A stretch of 64,000 nucleotides of DNA. Origin: a virus. Position 1 is the first letter of the stretch. Each line of letters starts with the position of its first letter. Positions 18,003 to 63,300 of the stretch are shown one piece after another. Under the pieces are notes generated by a model. That model saw nothing but the letters and a program-made list of their open reading frames with translations, ran no database searches and was not told the DNA's origin. The translations under genes were made by a program, and so were the position numbers. The DNA is taken from the IMG/VR virus record IMGVR_UViG_3300044655_002046; one strand, written 5' to 3'.

Positions 18003-18629
18003 ATGAAGTATGTCACACCGAAAGAGGCCGCCCAAAACCTCGGGGTCAGCGTCTCCTCCCTCAGAAGGTGGGAAGCTGAAGGAAAAGTCAAAAGCATCCG
18101 AACACCCGGAGGGCAACGCCGTTACTGCATTGAAGAGTACGAGCCGGAAGGTAAGTCCATTGTCTGTTACGCAAGGGTTTCCACCCACGGACAAAAAGAC
18201 GACCTCGAAAGACAAGCTGAATTTCTACGCTCAAAGTATCCTCGGGCTGAAATTATCACAGAAATTGGAAGCGGACTCAATTTTAAACGGAAGCGGTTCC
18301 TCTCTATTTTGGAGCGAATATATCAAAGAGATGTCGGCTTGCTTGCCGTTGCCTATCCTGACAGACTCGCTCGATTTGGGTTCCCACTTATTGAGTGGAT
18401 TTGTCAGCAGAGTGAATGCAAACTCGTGGTTCTCAATGAATCTAAACTCTCTCCCCACGAAGAACTCGTTCAAGATATTCTGTCCATCCTCCACTGTTTC
18501 TCTGCTAGGCTTTACGGATTGCGAAAATACCAAAAGCAAACCGAAGAGGCCCTTCAAGAAGAATCCCCGCAACAAGTCGAAGAAGGAAAAACCCAACAGT
18601 GTCTTGAAGATCAGGGTCTTTCCATCTAG
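18003..18629 (+). CDS. tnpA: IS607 TnpA (MerR-HTH plus serine recombinase)
   Basis: TPKEAAQNLGVSVSSLRRWE...TPGGQRRY; CYARVS; EIGSGLN; YPDRLARFG; ELVQDILSIL. Confidence 0.95.
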   Translation: MKYVTPKEAAQNLGVSVSSLRRWEAEGKVKSIRTPGGQRRYCIEEYEPEGKSIVCYARVSTHGQKDDLERQAEFLRSKYPRAEIITEIGSGLNFKRKRFLSILERIYQRDVGLLAVAYPDRLARFGFPLIEWICQQSECKLVVLNESKLSPHEELVQDILSILHCFSARLYGLRKYQKQTEEALQEESPQQVEEGKTQQCLEDQGLSI

Positions 18630-19737
18630 GGAGTTGCATCAAGTCTGGAAACAATGGTTGGCGGCTTATCGATGGATCTACAACCAAACAATTAATTTAC
18701 TTCGCCAAGGTGCCAAACCTAATATCTATGATATGCAAGCCGAGCTTCGGGATTTAGCCAAGCCCGAATGGGTTAAAAACTTACCCGGACACCAGTTACA
18801 AGAAGCCGTTGCGGATGCTTGTGACGCGCATCGACAGGCTATTGCTAACAAGGGTTCCGCTTACTTAAAGTCATGCCGAGCAACGTCGCAAGTCATCAAA
18901 TTCAAGGCGGGAAATTTCAAAAAGGGGACGTGGTATCCTTTACTTACCAAAGGATTATCTTTTACGTCCCCCCAAGAAATTCCCTCTCATTGCAATTATG
19001 GCACCCAGTTGGTTTACGCTCGGCGGCAATGGTTTGCCTGCTTTCCTGTGTTAAAACCAATTGAGTTGACCAGTGAAAATCGAGTTATCGCTCTAGACCC
19101 AGGAGTAAGAACCTTTTTAACTGGTTATGACGGAGAAACTGTTTTAGAAGTTGGCGGGAAAGACATCGGAGCAATACATCGTCTTTGCCTGCATCTCGAC
19201 CAACTCTGCTCTTGGATTAGCACGTCTAAATCAAAACGTCAGCGTTACAAAATGCGTCGGGCCGCTAGTCGGCTTCGGGGTCGGATTCAAAATTTAATCA
19301 AAGACCTTCATGCTAAAACTGCGTCATTTTTGGTTCAGCATTACAAACTTATCTTTTTGCCCACTTTTGAGACGGGCCAAATGGTCTCAAAATCCACCCG
19401 GAAGCTCAACAAGAAATCGGCACGGAATCTCTTAACATGGAGTCACTACCGATTCGCTCAACACTTACAGCAAACAGCAGATAGGCATAGTGTTTTAGTG
19501 ATTCGTTGCAACGAGTCCTATACATCCAAAACCTGTCCCGAGTGCGGGCATATTCACGAAAAACTGGGTGGTTCCAAGGTCTTTAAGTGTCCTCATTGTG
19601 GATATCAAGCGCCACGAGATTGGCACGGCGCACGAAATATTATGTTTCGTGCTTTGCAGGCAACAGCCGTTATCTTTCGAGATGATGCCGTACTTTTTCA
19701 AGGTTTGAGTAGCGATACTCAACTTTGTTTAGGTTAA
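18331..19737 (+). CDS. tnpB: IS607 TnpB with Fanzor-type rearranged RuvC (start uncertain; frame open from 18010)
   Basis: RuvC-I ALDPGVR; IFLPTF replaces canonical xxEDL; NESYTSKTCPECG; CPHCG..RDWHGARNI. Confidence 0.9.
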   Translation: MSACLPLPILTDSLDLGSHLLSGFVSRVNANSWFSMNLNSLPTKNSFKIFCPSSTVSLLGFTDCENTKSKPKRPFKKNPRNKSKKEKPNSVLKIRVFPSRELHQVWKQWLAAYRWIYNQTINLLRQGAKPNIYDMQAELRDLAKPEWVKNLPGHQLQEAVADACDAHRQAIANKGSAYLKSCRATSQVIKFKAGNFKKGTWYPLLTKGLSFTSPQEIPSHCNYGTQLVYARRQWFACFPVLKPIELTSENRVIALDPGVRTFLTGYDGETVLEVGGKDIGAIHRLCLHLDQLCSWISTSKSKRQRYKMRRAASRLRGRIQNLIKDLHAKTASFLVQHYKLIFLPTFETGQMVSKSTRKLNKKSARNLLTWSHYRFAQHLQQTADRHSVLVIRCNESYTSKTCPECGHIHEKLGGSKVFKCPHCGYQAPRDWHGARNIMFRALQATAVIFRDDAVLFQGLSSDTQLCLG

Positions 19738-37281: not shown

Positions 37282-37477
37282 AAGGGACAGGGTTTGCCTA
37301 GACCAATTTAGGCAACGCAAGTAGAGACTACCGCATTGAGACACAATCTGGCACAGACTTCCGAATACTTCCCTAGTTCGGATTACCTCTAAGCTTTATT
37401 GGTAAAGCGTTGTTAGACAAGGCATCTTGATTGTGTTGCGGGAAGGGACTTTAACTTTACTCTTAAGGATTATCTCC
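37264..37477 (+). ncRNA. IsrB omegaRNA scaffold
   Basis: Directly upstream of isrB; hairpins CCCT..AGGG, TTGCCTA..TAGGCAA, CCGAA..TTCGG; homologous to 23212-23428 and 44563-44626. Confidence 0.82.
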
Positions 37478-38575
37478 ATGGAAAGAGTTCCTGTTATTTC
37501 AAAAGACGGAAAGCCGTTAATGCCTACCAAACCCAGTCGGGCCAGACGGTGGATTAAGGAAGGAAAAGCTATCGGCAAATTCAACGACTTAGATATTTTC
37601 TATGTCCAGCTAACCGATGAACCTTCCAATAACAAAACCCAACCAATTGCCATTGGTATTGACCCAGGTAAATTATTCTCTGGAATCGGTGTTCAATCTT
37701 CTCTTTTCACTCTCTGGAAAGCTCACTTAGAACTCCCCTTTAAACGAGTCAAAGAGCGCATGGACAATAGACGGTTAATGCGACGGAGCAGAAGGGGACG
37801 GCGGATCAACCGCCAACTTCCTTTTAATCTAAGAGCGCATCGTCAAAAACGATTCTCCAATAGAAGAAAAGCTAAGTTGGCTCCCTCAATCAGAGCTAAT
37901 CGTCAACTTGAACTTCGAGTCGTTTCCGAACTAACCAAAATCTATCCAATTACCGATATTTACTTTGAGTACATCAAAGCCGATGTTGATTTAACTTCTG
38001 GTAGAAAAGGGGCTAAGTCTGGAAAAGGTTTCTCGCCGGTTATGGTTGGACAGAAATGGGCTATTGAGCAACTGTCTCAATTGGCAACAGTCCATACTCG
38101 CTTTGGTTGGCAAACCTCTAATCTCAGAAAACATTTGCGACTAGAAAAGTCTAAAAATAAAGCAGAACAATCACCCGAAAGTCATGCTAATGATGGCATT
38201 GCTCTTGCCTGTTTTCAATTTTTAGATTATTTGCCATTCCATACTTCTAATAGTCATGGACATGATTGGAAGGGTTCTGTTAAAGTAACAAACGCTCCCT
38301 TTGCTGTCATCAAACGTCCTCCTATTAGTCGTCGTCAACTTCACTTGATGGTTTTTTCTAAGGGTGGTAAACGACGTAAATATGGTGGATCTATCACAAG
38401 ACATGGGTTCCGTAAAGGAGATTTAGTTTCTTCTCCCAAAGGAATTGGTTATGTTAGTGGAGATACCGAAAAACAGCTATCTGTAAGCGATAACAGTTGG
38501 AAACGATTGGGACAGATAGTTGTTAGTAAGATTCAGCTAATTCGTCGTTCTAACGGTTTAATTGTTTCTCACTAA
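37478..38575 (+). CDS. isrB: IsrB RNA-guided nickase (RRXRR/PLMP, split RuvC, no HNH)
   Basis: PLMPTKPSRARRW; GIDPG; bridge helix RRLMRRSRRGRR; IYFEY; SHAND; 365 aa, no HNH/CxxC. Confidence 0.88.
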   Translation: MERVPVISKDGKPLMPTKPSRARRWIKEGKAIGKFNDLDIFYVQLTDEPSNNKTQPIAIGIDPGKLFSGIGVQSSLFTLWKAHLELPFKRVKERMDNRRLMRRSRRGRRINRQLPFNLRAHRQKRFSNRRKAKLAPSIRANRQLELRVVSELTKIYPITDIYFEYIKADVDLTSGRKGAKSGKGFSPVMVGQKWAIEQLSQLATVHTRFGWQTSNLRKHLRLEKSKNKAEQSPESHANDGIALACFQFLDYLPFHTSNSHGHDWKGSVKVTNAPFAVIKRPPISRRQLHLMVFSKGGKRRKYGGSITRHGFRKGDLVSSPKGIGYVSGDTEKQLSVSDNSWKRLGQIVVSKIQLIRRSNGLIVSH

Positions 38576-50088: not shown

Positions 50089-51527
50089 TAATACGAGTAG
50101 ATGGTAACTGGGCCTATATACCAGAACTACTGCCAGGCTGTCATAGACATCTCTGTGCAGTGCTAGACGTAGAAGAAGCCCGCTCTATAGCAGGTATTCT
50201 TCCTATTGAACCTCTAGCTATACCCGCCCATTACCCTCTCTACTACCCAGATAGGCAGGGGGGCCGTCGCTTATTGGCGGGCCTCCTCCCCCTCTACATG
50301 GAGTTATTACGTCGGGCCGGCCATACTGCGACTCTAGAGTTACTCTCTCAACCAACGCTACTCGATCCTGATGTAGACGCCAGACTACGCCCCGACCAAC
50401 GAGAGGCAATAGCTAGTATATTATGGGGCTGTCGAGGCTACGTACGGGCTGCTACTGGTTATGGGAAGAGCGCTGTTATAGCTACGCTGATGAAGTACTT
50501 CGAGGCCCGACGACTCATAGTAGTACCCACCGTGCGTCTACTCTACCAGATGGCAGAGGATGTACAGGAGTGGGCGGGCCTCTCACCTGGGCTAGTAGGA
50601 GATGGTAATGATGATATTAGAGCTATGACTATCGCTACCGTAGATACTCTCTATGAGCGCATTAAACGGAGTGATAAGCGCTATATAGAATGGCTCTCTA
50701 GCATTGAGATCGCCGTGTTCGATGAGGCGCATACCTATATGAACGCAAGTGGTATCACTACTGCTCTGTCATTAGACAACGCGCGTTATAAGATTGGCAT
50801 GACTGCCACACCTACAAGCAAAAAGATGATGGAGGCTATATTCGGCCCCCTTCTCGGAGAGTATCAGGAAACTACTCTCATCGAGAGAGGCGTTATCATG
50901 CAGCCTAAGTTCGAGTTCTATCCCGCTCCTCCCGGTGTAGTAACGCGCGGCTCATTTGATAAGCCCTTTACTCCGTGGCTATATAATCAGCTATACGATA
51001 ACGTCATAGTTAATAATAGAGCCCGCAATGCGCTTATAGCGAAGCACGCGCGTCGGTTGATAAGTGAAGGCTATGGGCCTGTGCTTATCCTAGTACGTAA
51101 GGTAGGTACTACTAGTAAGAAGAAGAATCCTACTAGCCAAGCCCTTAATATACTGACTGAGCTAGAGGCGCTGGGTATATCTCTACCTATTATTCATGGT
51201 AAGAGCTCTAACATAACAGACGTACTAGACCAGCTGTCAGCGGGCTCTATATCTGGCGCTATAGCCAGTGAGGGTATCCTGAGCCTAGGTGTGAGTATAC
51301 GCTCTATTGGTAGTATAATCATGGCCGCCGGCGGTAAGGGAGGAGTAGACGGTGTATCTATGATTCAAAAGGTGGGCCGGGCCTTACGCCTTAAAGAGGG
51401 TAAGCGTAACCCACCTATAATTGACTTCGTGGATCCTCAGGGCTGGTTCCACTCTCAGAGTGAGACGCGCATTAGAATAGCGACTGATACATACGGCGGT
51501 GATCACGTTACTGTATTCACTACTTGA
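50085..51527 (+). CDS. SF2 helicase (UvsW-like)
   Basis: LRPDQ, ATGYGKS, FDEAH, GMTATP, QKVGRALR. Confidence 0.92.
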   Translation: MIIRVDGNWAYIPELLPGCHRHLCAVLDVEEARSIAGILPIEPLAIPAHYPLYYPDRQGGRRLLAGLLPLYMELLRRAGHTATLELLSQPTLLDPDVDARLRPDQREAIASILWGCRGYVRAATGYGKSAVIATLMKYFEARRLIVVPTVRLLYQMAEDVQEWAGLSPGLVGDGNDDIRAMTIATVDTLYERIKRSDKRYIEWLSSIEIAVFDEAHTYMNASGITTALSLDNARYKIGMTATPTSKKMMEAIFGPLLGEYQETTLIERGVIMQPKFEFYPAPPGVVTRGSFDKPFTPWLYNQLYDNVIVNNRARNALIAKHARRLISEGYGPVLILVRKVGTTSKKKNPTSQALNILTELEALGISLPIIHGKSSNITDVLDQLSAGSISGAIASEGILSLGVSIRSIGSIIMAAGGKGGVDGVSMIQKVGRALRLKEGKRNPPIIDFVDPQGWFHSQSETRIRIATDTYGGDHVTVFTT

Positions 51528-51537
51528 TACTAGCTTC

Positions 51538-51801
51538 CTAGCATGCCCATGCCCGGCGGGCCTTACATAAGCGCTTGTTAGGTGTCTTGCGACAGTCTAT
51601 ATCGTGCATATCCGCCTGACCTGCGCTACGCGCACAGAAGCTCTTGCGGCGGGCCGCATCCGCCTTGTTCTTGGGATTAGGAGCAGGGGGCTTCAGGTTA
51701 GAGCCAGTAGCGCGATTATAATCAGCGCGGCCCTTAGCTGTTAGCCCTCCGTCTGGATCCTTGTGCTCTTTCTTAAAAGTGAAGCTCTTCTTCTTAGCCA
51801 T
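51538..51801 (-). CDS. DUF6321-like small basic cyanophage protein
   Basis: KDPDGGLTAKGR..YN...GSNLKPP...RRKSFCAR. Confidence 0.7.
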   Translation of the reverse strand: MAKKKSFTFKKEHKDPDGGLTAKGRADYNRATGSNLKPPAPNPKNKADAARRKSFCARSAGQADMHDIDCRKTPNKRLCKARRAWAC

Positions 51802-51827
51802 AGTTATTAACAGACATTAGAAATTGT

Positions 51828-52330
51828 GTTAGAATTAATCTCAATCCCTAGTAGGGTTTGAGATTCACCATTATCATACTCAACGTAATTGGTTAATAGT
51901 AGGTGTTATTGTGTATTAGTTTTAAACCCTACTAGAGATTGAAACTGATTGAATTATGGTAGATTCCCAATCCGAATATTGATAAGATAACTTTTTATTT
52001 AGGAGACACAAAGTGATTACTGCAAAACAATTAAAAGAGTTTTTGGCGACCGTTGAAGACAATGCGCTTATTTTTATAGGGAAAAGCGGAGGGATGTCTT
52101 ATGGTTGCCAAGATTTTATGGTTAAGAAGGAATTGTTTATAGAGAAAGAAGACCAGTTTCTTGATTCTCTAATTTGGGACCACGACTTCGATGACGAAGA
52201 AATTGAAAAGCTTGAGAAGGAAGCTATCGAGCGACAAGCTGTCTATTTACAATACTACCCAGATTGGGGAGAAGATTAAATATTAAGGAAAAAGAAACAA
52301 TTAAGTTTAAGCTTTATTAGGGATTGAAAC
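51828..52330 (+). CRISPR. cas-less CRISPR repeat copies: mini-array (51828-51864, 44-nt spacer, 51909-51945) plus third copy 52294-52330
   Basis: All three 37-mers align to the cyanobacterial repeat GTTCCAATTAATCTTAAACCCTATTAGGGATTGAAAC (recalled from memory); two end in ATTGAAAC. Confidence 0.75.
52013..52279 (+). CDS. small acidic protein between CRISPR repeats
   Basis: 88 aa, D/E-rich, AGGAG RBS. Confidence 0.65.
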   Translation: MITAKQLKEFLATVEDNALIFIGKSGGMSYGCQDFMVKKELFIEKEDQFLDSLIWDHDFDDEEIEKLEKEAIERQAVYLQYYPDWGED

Positions 52331-52342
52331 TGATACTAAACA

Positions 52343-52648
52343 ATGAATCAAACGCAACTAGATAAAAAGATCGATCAATTTCTAAGAAAGAAATTAACCA
52401 AAGCAGAACTAAAAGAGATGGGAATAAAACCACACTCTTTAATCTTAACAATACGCAATCTTATCGAAAGGTATCTATCTATTATTTGGACTAATCTTAA
52501 AGAAGATGTTCCTTATGGATGGGAGCAATTTTTTGAATGTTTTCGTTTATGGCAAGAATTAATATTTGAGAAAGACTGTACTAATTCTTGCAAAGGAATG
52601 TTTTTCTGGTTTCTTAGTGATAAGCAATGGTATCTTGGCAATGAATAA
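52343..52648 (+). CDS. host-like hypothetical protein
   Basis: 101-aa ORF immediately after the third repeat. Confidence 0.55.
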   Translation: MNQTQLDKKIDQFLRKKLTKAELKEMGIKPHSLILTIRNLIERYLSIIWTNLKEDVPYGWEQFFECFRLWQELIFEKDCTNSCKGMFFWFLSDKQWYLGNE

Positions 52649-52688
52649 ACATTAAAACTTTATATGTAAAATTAATCGGAGTCACGAT

Positions 52689-53210
52689 ATGTTTTATGTA
52701 GAACTGTTAAATTCTTGCTATTCTTACTCTTCTATTCAAGACAGTCAGTCAGAAGAACCTGTTGAAAACTATCCTCAACAGAGTCAAGGACTTTTCAGTG
52801 ATATTAATAAAAACCGTCAAACTCAAAAAGGATTAGAAGGTTATTTACAAACCTTTCTAAATATTTGGAATCGAGAATTAGAGCCTGATGGTGAATTTAG
52901 TTGGCAGATTATTCGGTTTCAGTTTAAAGAAACAAAAAGTTTTATGTTAGCCATTGTTTTCTCTACGCAAGAGTACGGAGAAAAACCTCAACCCGTTTCT
53001 GAACTAGAACAAGAGCAACGAATAGAATCTCTTAATCAACTAATAAAACAGAAAAATGATTTAGTTTGTTCAGTTTCTGATACAGAAATTATCATTATTA
53101 AGCGCAATGAACAAAGACTATGGACTTGTAGTATGGCGCGTAAAGACGCAGGAGAGGCAATGCTTCAACTTCTTAATTTGCAAGAATCTCAAAAGAATCA
53201 AAAACCATGA
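52689..53210 (+). CDS. C-terminal fragment of a type IIG-like R-M methyltransferase
   Basis: IIIIKRNEQRLWTCSMARKDA resembles IIKPxExRxWxxSxAxxDA tails of N6-MTase/IIG enzymes; no catalytic motifs. Confidence 0.5.
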   Translation: MFYVELLNSCYSYSSIQDSQSEEPVENYPQQSQGLFSDINKNRQTQKGLEGYLQTFLNIWNRELEPDGEFSWQIIRFQFKETKSFMLAIVFSTQEYGEKPQPVSELEQEQRIESLNQLIKQKNDLVCSVSDTEIIIIKRNEQRLWTCSMARKDAGEAMLQLLNLQESQKNQKP

Positions 53211-53239
53211 TTGACAGGCATTAAGAATTATGGTAAGAT
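53211..53239 (+). promoter_or_regulatory. sigma70-type promoter for tRNA-Tyr
   Basis: TTGACA-N17-TAAGAT with extended TG. Confidence 0.8.
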
Positions 53240-53251
53240 AAATCTAAACAA

Positions 53252-53333
53252 GGGTTAGTGGCCGAGTAGTCGAAGGCGACAGACTGTAAATCTGTAGAGT
53301 AATTCCACGCTGGTGCAAATCCAGCCTAACCCA
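53252..53333 (+). tRNA. trnY: tRNA-Tyr (GTA)
   Basis: Acceptor GGGTTAG/CTAACCC; anticodon arm ACAGA-ctGTAaa-TCTGT; long variable arm; T arm GCTGG-TGCAAAT-CCAGC; CCA not encoded. Confidence 0.92.
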
Positions 53334-53362
53334 CTAAAAATAATAACCATAGGAGTAAATCA

Positions 53363-56964: not shown

Positions 56965-57351
56965 ATGCTTACTGAATTTTTGCATGATTGGGTCAAGTCT
57001 GAGCCTCACATTTGTGGGTATGGGTTGGGTACTTTTCGGAATACCTTTTTTATCGAACTATCTTGGGGTGATTGGATTTCTATCTCTACCTCTGGTCCTA
57101 ATCCCTTTTTGTTAGATAGAGGGTCGCTTGCTAAGTTGATCTATTTTTTTCAAATGCGACTAGATAGCTTTGGCTATGGCTGGGTTATTCAACGATTACC
57201 TAATAGTTATACTGTGACAGTTACCGTGAACCCCAATATTTACGAGACTTCACGTTGTTTTGTCTCTCGGCAAGAGTCTCTCATTGAGGCTCTGCTAGAG
57301 GTGTATTTAGAGGCGGTTGCTTATAAGAAAAAGTCGCTTTACGTTCAGTAA
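56965..57351 (+). CDS. hypothetical protein
   Basis: 128-aa ORF preceding the mini-gene array. Confidence 0.6.
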   Translation: MLTEFLHDWVKSEPHICGYGLGTFRNTFFIELSWGDWISISTSGPNPFLLDRGSLAKLIYFFQMRLDSFGYGWVIQRLPNSYTVTVTVNPNIYETSRCFVSRQESLIEALLEVYLEAVAYKKKSLYVQ

Positions 57352-57364
57352 AAGAAGGCATCTA

Positions 57365-60300
57365 ATGAAAGAGATTAGTACAAATTATTGGGCGCCCCAT
57401 AATGATTATGGGGCGCCTCATAATGATTATCTATGGGACGCACCTATACCTATTACTAACCCGCCAATAGCAAACGGTGATACTTTATACTATAGCTTCT
57501 ACGTTTATAATGCTGGGGGGCCCGCCAAGTTTTACGATAGACTGACAGGAAATGTTGAGGACGGTTATTTCGATGAAGATGATTAATTCTGACAATTGGG
57601 CCCCTCGTAATAGAAGAGCCCCGCATGCGTGGCTATATACTAAACCTATTACTGACCCGCCTGTTGACCAACAAGTGTATTTTGCTTATAGTCGAGAAGT
57701 CGCCTGGTTTTATTATAGACTAGGAGAATTTGCGTTATATGGCTTTTATGGGGGGCGATTACTTCAATGAGAGCGATTAGCTGTAATAAGCTTAATTACT
57801 TGTTTTATTATTATGAGGATGTGACCGTCGAGAGTCATATTCCTGAATTAAGCAGGTGCTCTATCGCCTATCATTACTACTATGAAAGCATGGGTGTCGA
57901 GGTTTATATCCTTGAACTGAACAAGTTACATGTTCCTATCCACCTGTTTTATCATAGATTAGGACATGTGTTATAATAACATTCTAGATAAGGACGGTTA
58001 TTTCTATGAAGATGATTAATTGTAATGATTGGGCCCCTCGTAATAGAAGGGCTGCGCATATACGGGATATACCTGTACCTACTACTAACCCGTTGATAGC
58101 AAACCGGAATAATTTATACTATAACTTTCATACTTATAGTGCCGGAGGAGTCGCTTGCGTTTACCGTAACCTATCATTATTTCTATGAAGAAGATTAATT
58201 GTAATGGTTGGGCTCCGCGTAATAAGCCGGTTCCGTATGAGTGGAGCGCACCCATACCTATTACTAACCCGTTGATAGCAAACGGTGATAGTTTATACTA
58301 TACTAACTTTCATACTTATAGTGCCGGAGGAGTCGCTTGCGTTTACCGTAACCTATCTGAGCCTACTATAACCTACCATTATTTCTATGAAGAAGATTAA
58401 TTGTAATGATTGGGCCCCACGTAATAAGCTGTTTCCATATAAGTGGGGCACCGCACCTATACCTATTACTAATCCGTTGATAGCACACCATAGTAGTTTA
58501 TACTATAACTTTTATGTCGGAGGAGTCGCTTGGGCTTACCATAACCTATCTGAGCCTACTATAACCTACCATTATTTCTATGAAGAAGATTAATTGTAAT
58601 GATTGGGCTCCGCGTAATCAGGTTCCAGATGACTGGGCCGCACCCATACCTATTACTAACCCGTTAATGTTGATAGTAACCCGTAATTATTTATACTACA
58701 GCTTTCATACTTATAGTGCCGGAGGAGTCGCTTGCGTTTATCATAATATAACCTATCTTAAATGGGCTTCGTATGAATGAAGTGTACCTGTACCTACTAC
58801 TGTTCCTCCAATAGCAGATGGTTATAGTTTATACTATAACTTTCATACTTATGGTGCCAGAGGAGTCGCTTGCGTTTACCGTAACCTATCATTATTTCTA
58901 TGTAACCTATCATTATTTTTATGAAGATAATTAATCCTAACGGTTGGGCTCCTCGTGATATTAAATGGGTTTCGTATGCATGGAATGCACCTGTACCCAT
59001 TACTAACCCTCTGATAGCAGATAATAAGTTATTCTATAACTTCTATTTTTATGGTTCTAGAGGAGGGCCTGCTTGGTTTTACTATGGATTGTTATATTTC
59101 GATGAAGATGATTAACGGTTGGTCTTCACGTAGTAAACTGAATACATATATCACTGACCCGTCGATTTTAGCAGACAGTGATAGTTTATACTACAGTTTC
59201 TATAACTATAACTTTCATACTTATAACGCTGGGGGGCCCGCCAGGTTTTACCATAGACTAGTGGGAGTAGCGTTGTATAGCATTCTAGATGAAGATAATT
59301 ATTTCGATGAGGATGATTGATTGTAATAATTGGGCCCCGCATAATAAGTCAAATATACCTATACTTATTACTGATCTGCTTATTAATGCAAACGGCTTAT
59401 TCGTATTTTTCGCCTGGTTTTATTATAGATTGGGAGCATCAGTGATATATCACTTTCTGAATAAGGATGGTTATTTCCATGAAGATAATTAATTCTAACG
59501 GTTGGGCTCCGCGTAATGTTAAATGGGCTTCGTATCATGAATGGAGCGGGCCTGTGCCTATTACTAGCCAGTCTATACTAAGTGATGGTAATTTATACCA
59601 TAGCTTCTATGTTTATAGGGAGGCAGGGGGGCTCGCTAAGTTTTACTATACATACCTATCACTAATCCGCCTCTAGTGAACGTTGATAATTTATACGATA
59701 GCTTTTATGTTTATGATGATGATGAAGAGGCTCGCTATATCTTATTATAGATTGGGAGCAGTGATATATCACTTTCTAAATAAGGATGGTTATTTCAATG
59801 AAGATAATTAATTGTAATGGTTGGGCTCCTCGTAATAATCCGGTTCTGTATGAGTGGAGCGCACCCATACCTATTACTAACCCGTTGATAGCAAACGGTG
59901 ATAGTTTATACCCTAGCTTTTATGATTATAATGCTGGAGGAGTCGCTTGGGTTTACTATAACCTATTTGGGCCTACTATAACCTATCATTACTTCTATGC
60001 AGATAATTAATTGTAACGACTGGACCCCACGTCATAAGTTAAATCTACCTATGCCTGTTAGGATTTATCTTAGGATTTATTATTGCGATGGCGCGGGTGT
60101 CCCAATCTATCTACCTGAATTAAATATTGACCAGTTTTATTATAGGTTGGTAAGCGTGTTATATAACATTCTAGATGAGGACAGTTATTTCAATGAAGAA
60201 GATTAATTCTTACTATTGGGCCCCGCTTAATATAAGACTTAAGACTGAGTGGACTCCATACACACCTGATGTGGAGCTTGATATGTTTTATTATGTACTG

Positions 60301-63300
60301 GCAAGAGTAGTATCCATTTTAGATGAAGACAATTGCTTCTATGAAGATGATTAATTATGAGTGGGACGCACCCATACCTATTACTAACCCGTTGATAGTA
60401 AACCGTAATTATTTATACTATAACTTTCATACTTATAGTGCCGGAGTAGTCGCTTGGGTTTACTATAACTTATCATGGATCATTACCACTACGAAAGTAT
60501 GAGTGTGGGTCTCTGGGTTTATCTACCTGAATTAGATAAGTTTTATGCTTCTATCAAGTTGTTTTATTATAGACTGACACTGTTCGCTAAGGACAATTTC
60601 TATGAAGATAGTTGATAGTGACAAATGGGCCCCACGTGATAAGTTGAATCTACCTATGTCTATTAGAGTTTATTATTACGATAACACAGGTCTTGTAAAT
60701 ATCGACCGGTTTTATTATAGACTGGTAAGCGTGTTTTATTATAACATTCTAAATGAAAACGGTTATTTCGATGAAGATGATTAATTGTAACAATTGGGCC
60801 CCGCATAATAGATTAAATATACCTATTACTGACCCGTCTGTTGACCTGCAGGTGTATTTTGCTTATAGTCCTGGAAGACTCTCCTGGTTTTATTATAGAC
60901 TGGGAGAATTTGGGACATATGGCTTTCTGAATGGGGGGCAGTTACTTCAATGAGAATAATTAGTTGTAACAAGCTTAATTACTTTTTTATTATTGTGAGC
61001 GCGTGGGTCTCGATACCTATACTCCTGAATTAAGGTTTTATGCTGTCGACCGATGTTACTATAGACTGGTAGCTGTGATATACGACATAGTAGATAAGCG
61101 TACATTTTATGAAGATGATTAATTGTAACGTTTTCAAACTTGCTTTGTTTTACGACTGGACTATCAAGAATAAGCTAAAGGCCCATACACTTATTACCTC
61201 TGTCGACAGGTTTTACTATAGACTAGTGGCTTTTATATATAACGCTCTATATGAGGATGATTATTTTGATGAAGAAGATTAAATCTCACAATTGGGCTCC
61301 TCGTTATGCGTGGACTCCATACATACCTACCACTAATCCGCCTCTAGTGAGCATTGATAATTTATACGATAGCTTTTATGTTTATAATGATGCTGGGGGG
61401 CTTGCTATGTTTTATTATATACTGGCATCACTTTCTGATAACAGATGGTTATAGTATAAACTATAACTTTCATGCTTATAATAATCAAGGGCTTGCTTGG
61501 TTTTACTGTAACCTATCATTAAGGGCTCGCTATATTTTATTATAGATTGGGAGCAGTGATATATCACTTTCTGAATAAGGATGGTTATTTCAATGAAAAA
61601 GATTAATTGTAACAATTGGGCCCCTCGTAATGTTGATTGGGCTTCGCATTATGAATGGAGCGGGCCTGTGCCTATTACTAGCCCGCTTATACTAAGTGAT
61701 GATATTTTATACTATAGCTTCTATGCTTATAATACTGGGGGGCCCGCTAAGTTTTACTATTTACTGATCCGCCCGTTAACCTACACGGATTATTAAGCAA
61801 ATTGTATTTTGCTTATAGTCTTGGGAGACTTGCTTGGTTTTATTATAAATTAGGAGAACTTGTAATATATAGCTTTCTTAATGAAGAGGACGATTACTTC
61901 AATGAGACTAATTAACTGTGACGAGCACATTGACGAGCACATTCAGATAAGTGACTTATTAGTTAAGCTCGATTATTATATTGCCTTGTTTTATTATGAG
62001 AACATGGGCCTCGATACCTATACTTTTGAATTAAGTAAGTTCTCTGGCTCTATCAACTTGTTTTATCATAGATTAGAACATTTACATAACACTCTAGATG
62101 AGAACAATTATTTCTATGAAGTTGATTAATTGTGACGCCCTGTTTTATTGTATGAGGGTATGTGTTTTTACAACTCCTGTACCTGAATTAGTCAGGTTCC
62201 ATGGTTCTATCAACCTATTTTATCATAGATTAGGAGATGTGTTATGTAGCATTCTAGATAAGGACGGTTATTTTGATGAAGATGATTAATTGTAACAATT
62301 GGGCTAATAACGATTGGACTCTACGTAATAAGTCGAATATACCTATACTTATTACTAACCCGCCGATTTTACTAAATGGTGATAATCTATACTATCTATG
62401 GGTCTATCGTTACTATCATAAAAGCATGGGTCTCGGGGCTTATATCCCTGAATTGGACAAGTTATATGATTCTATCGACTTGTTTTATTATAAACTATCA
62501 AATTTGTTATATGACTTTCTAGGGGAGGGGGATTATTTTTATGAAGAGGATTGATGACTGGGCTCCGCGTATGCCTATATCTATTACTGATCTGCCCGTT
62601 GACCTAGACAGATCATTAACCAAATTGTATTTTGCTTATAGTCCTAGAAACCTTGTTTATTATAGATTAGTAGTTCTTGTAATATATAGCTTTCTTAATA
62701 GAGAGAACGATTACTTCAATGAGAGTGATTAACTGTGACGCCCTGTTTTATTGTATAAGGGTATGTGTCTTTACAACTCATGTACCTGAATTAGTCAGGT
62801 TCCATGGTTCTATCAACCTGTTTTATCATAGATTAGGAGATGAGTTATATAACATTCTAGATGAGAACAGTTATTTCGATGAAGATGCTTAATTGGGACG
62901 CCCCGTTTTATTATCATGAGGGTATGTGGCTTATAACTTATATACCTGAATTAGACAGGTACCATGGTTCTATTTCTATCAACCCGTTTTATTATAGATT
63001 AGGAGATGAGTTATATAACATTTTATATGAAGACGGTTATTTCGATGAAGATGATTAAACGTAACAATTGGGCTCAGCGTAATAGATTAAATATATCTAT
63101 ACCTATTACTGATTCGCCCATTGACCTACACGAATTAATAGCTTATAGTCCTGGGAAACTTTCTTGGTTTTATTATAGATTAGGAGAACTTGTAATATAT
63201 AGCTTTCTTAATAGAGAGGACGATTACTTTAATGAGAGCGATTAGTTGTAATAAGCTTAATTACTTATTTTATTATTATGAGGATGTGACCCTCGAGAGT

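Follow-up and report, generated by a model that had tools for sequence, protein, structure and literature searches.

The window (the whole 64,000-nt stretch analyzed, from the IMG/VR virus record IMGVR_UViG_3300044655_002046) carries three CRISPR-repeat-like copies, A, B and C, which appear to fit two modules: a virus-borne mini-array (A-S1-B, with spacer S1), whose target does not show the PAM, beside the remnant of a type V-U2 array from which the effector is absent. We consider it probable that copy C is a scar and that A-S1-B is a spent mini-array once directed against sibling phages. Most likely, the locus combines a deletion scar with a decayed instance of a known strategy, and both modules fit known virus-versus-virus tricks better than they fit an RNA that jams host immunity.

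The virus and its variable island

The window virus is a Fukuivirus (Ma-LMM01/MaMV group), a virus of the bloom-forming cyanobacterium Microcystis, and shares 92-94% identity with MaMV-DH01, CH01, CH02, DL01, DL02, MaMV-DC and Ma-LMM01. The repeat copies are located in an AT-rich island (GC 32% vs. 45-48% for the flanks), which DH01 and CH01 also have and LMM01, DC and CH02 lack; the repeat cassette is common among Fukuiviruses. Apart from the repeats, the island and its borders comprise:

51538-51801, minus strand: 87-aa DUF6321 gene (Pfam PF19846, E 2e-26), left anchor of the variable island
52013-52279, plus strand: ORF88, 88 aa, acidic (22 D/E, 9 K/R); its counterpart lies directly upstream of c2c8 in L219-L221
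52343-52648, plus strand: ORF101, 101 aa, chimeric, with the N-terminal half of a 95-aa gene fused to the C-terminal half of a 104-114-aa paralogue
52689-53210, plus strand: 173-aa ORF (phrog_36071), right anchor, common to c2c8-bearing phages
53252-53334: tRNA-Tyr, after the 173-aa ORF (sole match to Rfam)

The sequence-only reading had found no cas genes in the window, and this was confirmed: among the 51 ORFs of at least 120 aa, PADLOC detected no adaptation, Cas6 or Cascade genes, and the only Cas12f-like match (18010-19737) was read as an IS607-type TnpB, which scored 20.8 bits on the C2c8 model (cutoff 350). ORF88 and ORF101 had no match in Pfam, PHROG, PADLOC or PDB, their AlphaFold models were of low confidence (pLDDT 57 and 62, respectively), and Atlas and PDB searches returned nothing usable. 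No known acr/aca gene context was recognized near the repeats by family or structure match of these two ORFs, and no sequence marker points to either as an Acr.

Several other features of this genome were recorded. The IS607-type TnpA/TnpB pair at 18003-19737 has a read-through frame, an IscB-like gene (37427-38575) scores under the family cutoff, and positions 57300-63300 hold a long tandem family of short paralogous ORFs (60-105 aa) with MKxINxNxWAPR-like starts in AT-rich DNA. In the interval between the helicase and the DUF6321 gene (51527-51538) the window has no ORF; LMM01 and DC have one there, and DH01, CH01 and CH02 have a transposase plus one or two more ORFs.

Repeat copies and their assignment to two modules

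The three 37-mers reported from the sequence alone were recovered in full, with 29/37 (A, 51828-51864), 28/37 (B, 51909-51945) and 29/37 (C, 52294-52330) matches to the repeat quoted there, while the next-best direct match within the window reached 24/37. When the local AT-rich 2.15 kb was shuffled 300 times, the best match was 23/37, and an 18-nt pattern search gave 3 matches vs. 0.09 expected. The 44-nt spacer between A and B has the sequence reported, and copies B and C do keep the 8-nt handle ATTGAAAC. The quoted repeat is DR1 of Microcystis, which forms arrays in Microcystis genomes and has been tied to subtype I-D (PMC4428289), so that the earlier assignment to a cyanobacterial, I-D-associated family was correct. 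A variant of DR1 with C at position 24 is here called DR1b.

The three copies had been taken as host-repeat copies of one locus. This holds for the cas-less A-spacer-B unit, which is derived from the host I-D repeat, but not for C, whose source is an array of a type V-U2 (C2c8) system in phages: the 3' ends of A and B are DR1b-like, whereas C is closer to the c2c8 repeat (34-35/37) than to DR1 or DR1b (28-29). Moreover, C occurs without A-B in L083 and L085, and A-B without C in L024. Judged by this distribution, A-S1-B and C are two modules, assorting independently. The differing repeat types and the independent assortment also ruled out the stretch from B to C as a single giant spacer.

Copy C as the probable remnant of a type V-U2 array

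52294-52330, plus strand: copy C, identical to the phage c2c8 repeat at 34-35 of 37 positions; trailer repeat of a type V-U2 (c2c8) phage array that was putatively deleted

Copy C and its 3' flank matched the array trailer of contig L091 at 47 of 52 positions. At the loci of ORF101 homologues, full arrays lie directly upstream, with up to 26 repeats and varied spacers mostly of 33-38 nt, and upstream of those arrays is a gene of 560-630 aa that scores above the cutoff of the C2c8 model (458 vs. 350 bits; Cas12u2 in PADLOC) and has all three RuvC acidic motifs. The gene order in L219-L221 is ORF88, c2c8, array, trailer and ORF95. The two genes flanking C enclose, in other Microcystis phages, exactly an intact c2c8 gene with its array. 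The window is collinear with L220 (51976-52293, 91%; 52286-52567, 83%; 52462-53339, 92%) and, compared with it, is without 2.26 kb (c2c8 and array) and a further stretch of about 1.5 kb, the second deletion, which would account for the paralogue fusion in ORF101. The c2c8 effector is absent from the window and had no match in four complete genomes with the same cassette.

Read from these alignments, copy C is the scar left by a phage C2c8 array after loss of the effector gene and the spacers. Recombination would have taken out c2c8 and all spacers, leaving the trailer repeat; the deletion itself is seen in the alignment, while its direction and a short-homology mechanism are our interpretation. 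The leftover trailer and the chimeric ORF101 suggest that the window is the reduced form. The C2c8 carriers tested belong to a different phage group (contigs of 54-84 kb, four of the five 86-92% complete, without the helicase region of the window), with genomes of roughly 85-90 kb and a leader between c2c8 and the array, that shares the island with the Fukuivirus window; because the carriers belong to another group, the island appears to have been exchanged between phage groups. The stem of C, said to be kept through G.U pairs, can indeed be drawn, but it is absent from the predicted fold, and the same variant is ordinary in the arrays of L071-L074, where it fills whole phage c2c8 arrays. Copy C is now solitary, yet the remnant of an array, and a solitary repeat elsewhere may likewise be an array scar and not a Racr.

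Solo c2c8-type repeats were also observed to end 5-15 nt before the start codons of small island genes (L090 3683, L095 3673, L076 1951, L123 and window 52294); these may be scars, recombination joints or Cas6 sites on mRNA. In addition, L025 2611-2728 (a contig shared with L063) holds B, exactly 44 nt and then a c2c8-type repeat, i.e., a mixed three-repeat unit.

Anatomy of the A-S1-B module

The module spans 51841-51975, as defined by its junctions with an allele lacking it. The promoter and the elements of the mini-array are:

51807-51835, plus strand: sigma-70-like promoter (TTAACA, 17 nt, TG-extended TAGAAT), 10/12 match
51828-51864, plus strand: copy A, end of the promoter and 3' 24 nt of DR1b, joined at an 8-nt word common to both
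51865-51908, plus strand: spacer S1, 44 nt, matching the orthologous intergenic stretch of repeat-less sister phages
51909-51945, plus strand: copy B, 3' 24 nt 23/24 to DR1b, handle intact, stem broken by G>A
51946-51975, plus strand: S2 trailer stretch, closing the mini-array module; it varies more than A-S1-B and has a short anti-handle word

The unit thus consists of one spacer between degenerate repeats of host type, cas genes being absent nearby, and no host leader precedes it; a conserved sigma-70 consensus is found instead. The 10/12 match of this promoter is by itself no better than in shuffles (mean 3.5 sites), and its support comes from conservation across alleles, including the repeat-less ones; TTGACA is present in several alleles. 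Transcription would start near 51842-51843, inside A. Because alleles without repeats also have this promoter, the first 13 nt of A are best taken as native promoter. The 5' end of B resembles a copy of the TTGTGT stretch of the promoter with the -10 core lost, and over their 3' 24 nt the repeat copies A and B match DR1b at 18-23 positions.

A 13-nt core of A (51845-51857) is inverted in the window allele, and both orientations were found among alleles. The handle of A reads TTTGAGAT in the window allele and ATTGAGAT in un-inverted ones, being altered at 2-3 of its 8 positions, while a predicted 4-bp Cas6 stem is retained in both orientations of the core. The un-inverted allele is 32/37 to DR1b (L024, L029) and is present in two contigs from RNA runs (such contigs may hold DNA). 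The extension of A into a long hairpin, as first noticed, does fold at -12.8 kcal; however, the first 13 nt of A are the native phage promoter, and the hairpin arms flank the inverted core. An origin of A as a whole inverted repeat was ruled out, given that the 13-nt core alone flips and un-inverted alleles exist. In the window allele, A is predicted to pair with B across the whole unit (-38 kcal, z -3.5), so that both stems would be hidden.

A-S1-B is nearly invariant over four haplotypes, while S2 varies. This invariance could be due to selection for a function that still exists, or to no more than a recent spread. No target was found for S2, which among viral contigs occurred only at this locus and was not detected in 17 Microcystis genomes. 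S2 as a tracrRNA of c2c8 was rejected: upstream of c2c8 it matched only at the ribosome-binding region of ORF88.

Spacer S1 and its target

S1 matched sister Fukuiviruses without repeats, with one mismatch in four contigs (43/44; L078, L128, L129 and L134) and two in a fifth (42/44; L080). The target site is just upstream of the DUF6321 gene, before the same promoter, the order of promoter and S1 being swapped between alleles. The matching sequence stops at the 37-nt repeat frames, and no more than 1 nt is shared beyond them. No second copy of S1 was found in DH01 (which has the same cassette), LMM01 or CH02. The 5' flank of the target is ATT in all five contigs and not GTH, the interference PAM of M. 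aeruginosa (PMC10212523); among the targets of host spacers, 77 of 95 had a GTN flank and 3 of 95 ATT. Without a GTH PAM at its target, canonical acquisition of S1 cannot be shown. As to length, only 2 of 509 host spacers reached at least 44 nt. S1 was found neither in 61 Microcystaceae genomes nor among 438 host spacers. The earlier proposal that host Cascade is aimed at a competitor or at a host gene, and the spacer search with PAM check advised for it, therefore came out in part: sister phages were matched, with ATT instead of GTH beside the target, but no host target was found.

The reading that we favor assumes the following steps. The 3' part of the host I-D repeat DR1b would have been fused to the beginning of a strong native promoter. 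Between two repeat copies, a spacer would have been placed that stems from the corresponding region of a sister phage. The intact unit would be transcribed early, cleaved by host Cas6d and loaded into the host I-D Cascade, which would then destroy co-infecting sister phages with the other allele, the carrier itself being without the target. This anti-sibling action is suggested by the anatomy together with the mechanism proposed for SPV1/SPV2. The mini-array is probably spent by now, as indicated by ATT in place of GTH at the targets, the mutated handle of A, the broken stem of B and an A-B pairing predicted to hide the stems.

It could instead still be active against sister phages, through a relaxed PAM (ATT) of the I-D Cascade, priming or another host effector. 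An extant allele is complementary to S1 at nearly every position, a small share of the targets of host and c2c8 spacers have ATT/ATC flanks, and the un-inverted allele occurs in populations; nevertheless, with GTH as the interference PAM of M. aeruginosa (PMC10212523), the handle mutated at 2-3 of 8 positions and the stem of B broken, we regard continued activity as quite improbable.

Another explanation is that S1 was never acquired by Cas1, native DNA of one allele having been sandwiched between repeat fragments by ordinary recombination, and that the palindromes now serve the early operon of the island, either as a DNA operator or as a structured mRNA leader. Given that the 5' end of B looks promoter-copied, non-CRISPR recombination could have built the unit, and the location of the target at the very same locus, its missing PAM, the unusual length of S1 and the overlap of A's perfected palindrome with the -10 box and start site agree with such an origin. 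Even so, it is very improbable in our judgment, considering that the match stops at the 37-nt frames with hardly any sequence shared beyond, that promoter and S1 change order between alleles, and that same-locus targeting with a perfect PAM occurs at a second mini-array of Fukuiviruses (see below) as well as in the literature (PMC6858448).

A CreA/CreR-like role, in which a crRNA-like RNA would pair partially with a host gene or the cas operon and direct host Cascade to repress it, is barely credible: the degenerate two-repeat anatomy resembles regulatory mini-arrays (10.1101/2023.03.03.530964), but no PAM-anchored seed match of S1 or S2 beyond chance was detected in the I-D cas locus of one Microcystis genome, and the searches of 61 family genomes (S1) and 17 genus genomes (S2) were negative.

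The locus as a candidate RNA anti-CRISPR

The other branch of the sequence-only reading, an RNA anti-CRISPR, received no specific support from the analyses run. Under this explanation, an abundant repeat-like RNA would be cut at A, and the product, whose 5' handle is defective and whose 3' end retains part of a repeat, would tie up Cas6d/Cas7d in dead complexes; C may act likewise, and ORF88/ORF101 may be Acrs. The strong predicted promoter with its start inside A, the stem of A kept both ways next to a mutated handle (resembling the handle-less filament logic of RacrIF1, PMC10651486), the frequency of the cassette in Fukuiviruses, the further solo repeats 5-15 nt before small island genes and the acidic nature of ORF88 are all compatible with a decoy. 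On the other hand, C is accounted for as a deletion scar, its sequence being simply an array variant, S1 is a real sister-phage copy that a decoy would not need, and both stems are predicted to be masked by A-B pairing in the window allele. Furthermore, the two ORFs lack database matches, ORF101 being a recombination chimera, and the whole cassette is missing from several complete relatives. On balance, an RNA anti-CRISPR is unlikely.

A combination of both ideas, which we consider rather unlikely, would be a spent mini-array turned type I-D RNA anti-CRISPR, in which the invertible 13-nt core switches it from an open state, with free stems and a defective handle, to a closed A-B hairpin and back; I-D and C2c8 repeats would be interchangeable in the surrounding Microcystis phage community, phage C2c8 arrays being filled, and perhaps processed, by host I-D Cas1-2-4 and Cas6.

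A second mini-array in Fukuiviruses

I-D repeat copies at other sites were present in all five complete Fukuivirus genomes searched. A second mini-array locus lies at about 36-44 kb:

L206/L207, about 1440-1760 (CH02 and CH01, about 40.3-40.6 kb): second I-D mini-array, two perfect repeats and a 39-nt spacer
L209, 1488-1670 (LMM01, 35.8 kb): second I-D mini-array

The CH01/CH02 spacer matched a promoter region of LMM01 and DH01 at 39 of 39 positions with a GTT PAM, and its self copy differed by 4 mismatches, which correspond to a 4-nt inversion at spacer positions 7-10 (seed-region self-escape). The first LMM01 spacer matched DC, CH01, CH02 and DH01 with 1-2 mismatches (flank GCC); the annotation of the LMM01 array reads merely '56 bp repeat unit'. 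Known mini-array spacers target regions adjoining the array in sibling viruses (PMC6858448), and the cross-targeting seen in the sequences of the second locus supports inter-phage conflict for Fukuiviruses. Sibling targeting nearby, self-escape and non-canonical flanks are all found in the family; an escaped and then decayed mini-array is therefore the most economical reading of A-S1-B.

Other single repeats were observed as well: a host I-D leader with one repeat in three viral contigs (L032 1390, L033 652 and L034 3293), a solo near-perfect DR1 at 13.6 kb of LMM01 (L204 1488), and a half repeat within a long inverted repeat in DC and DH01 (L205/L208 1488).

Comparison with known systems

Like the mini-arrays of SPV1/SPV2 (PMC6858448; reviewed in PMC11656645), A-S1-B is cas-less, with one spacer, its own predicted promoter and a host-type repeat, and S1 matches a close relative next to the array position, the carrier being without the target. 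In contrast to them, its repeats are degenerate and not host-identical, a native phage promoter is fused into A in place of a host leader, the target has no PAM, and the putative system is of type I-D, in a cyanobacterium.

Copy C and its 3' flank correspond to the trailer of an array like that of the type V-U2 (C2c8/Cas12u2) system of cyanophage vB_AphaS-CL131 (PMC6293099), and relatives have an intact gene at this position; unlike in that phage, effector, leader and spacers are deleted in the window. The CL131 repeat was reported to be unlike that of its host (PMC6293099), whereas the c2c8 repeat of Microcystis phages matches host DR1 at 31 of 37 positions, with an identical 8-nt handle, and the targets of its spacers mostly have GTC-like flanks.

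Like the solitary repeat units named Racr (PMC10651486), the repeat-like units lie in intergenic phage DNA, downstream of a promoter and surrounded by small genes. They differ in that A-B is non-solitary and has a real spacer, that C is traceable to an array, and that there is no known acr/aca neighbor. No Microcystis or MaMV entries were found in the supplements of PMC10651486 that were searched.

Fukuiviruses and their host are in culture, which would make mini-array-driven superinfection exclusion testable in a bloom-forming cyanobacterium; no report of such exclusion there was found in the literature searched. c2c8 loci and an orphaned V-U2 array have already been described by others. No description of the present mini-arrays, or of c2c8 in Microcystis phages, was found in the literature searched (several relevant journals lay outside its reach).

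C2c8 and host I-D repeats in Microcystis and its phages

The c2c8 spacers matched small Microcystis plasmids and phages. Five spacers had targets with a 5' GTC flank, two had targets with ATC, and a single spacer each had ATT, GCT, GCG and CAT. The c2c8 gene adjoins DR1 arrays in three Microcystis genomes, and two of the three have a hybrid array in which c2c8-type repeats come first, followed by DR1. The near-identical C2c8 and I-D repeats, the hybrid arrays and the GTC-like flanks suggest how V-U2 systems may obtain spacers; from these sequence features we infer that phage c2c8 arrays would be filled by host I-D adaptation proteins.

The arrays of c2c8-bearing phages (L045-L074, L101-L120 and L219-L235) showed variable spacers, many of which matched the 7-kb plasmid p1 of NIES-2549, mostly with GTC-like flanks, and one phage c2c8 spacer matched sibling c2c8 phages. 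Where targets of host I-D spacers were found, the majority lay in the c2c8 phage group of 80-90 kb (L263-L267, L228), and some of these spacers are directed at c2c8 itself. On Microcystis contigs, c2c8 with a leader was located beside DR1 arrays (L015 4327-7600, L269, L270 and L268), in L015 after a gene resembling host cas6. Lastly, in an intergenic region of the small NIES-298 plasmid NZ_CP046059.1, the 3' half of DR1 occurs twice in isolation, with a distance of 185 nt (L248 7006 and 7191).
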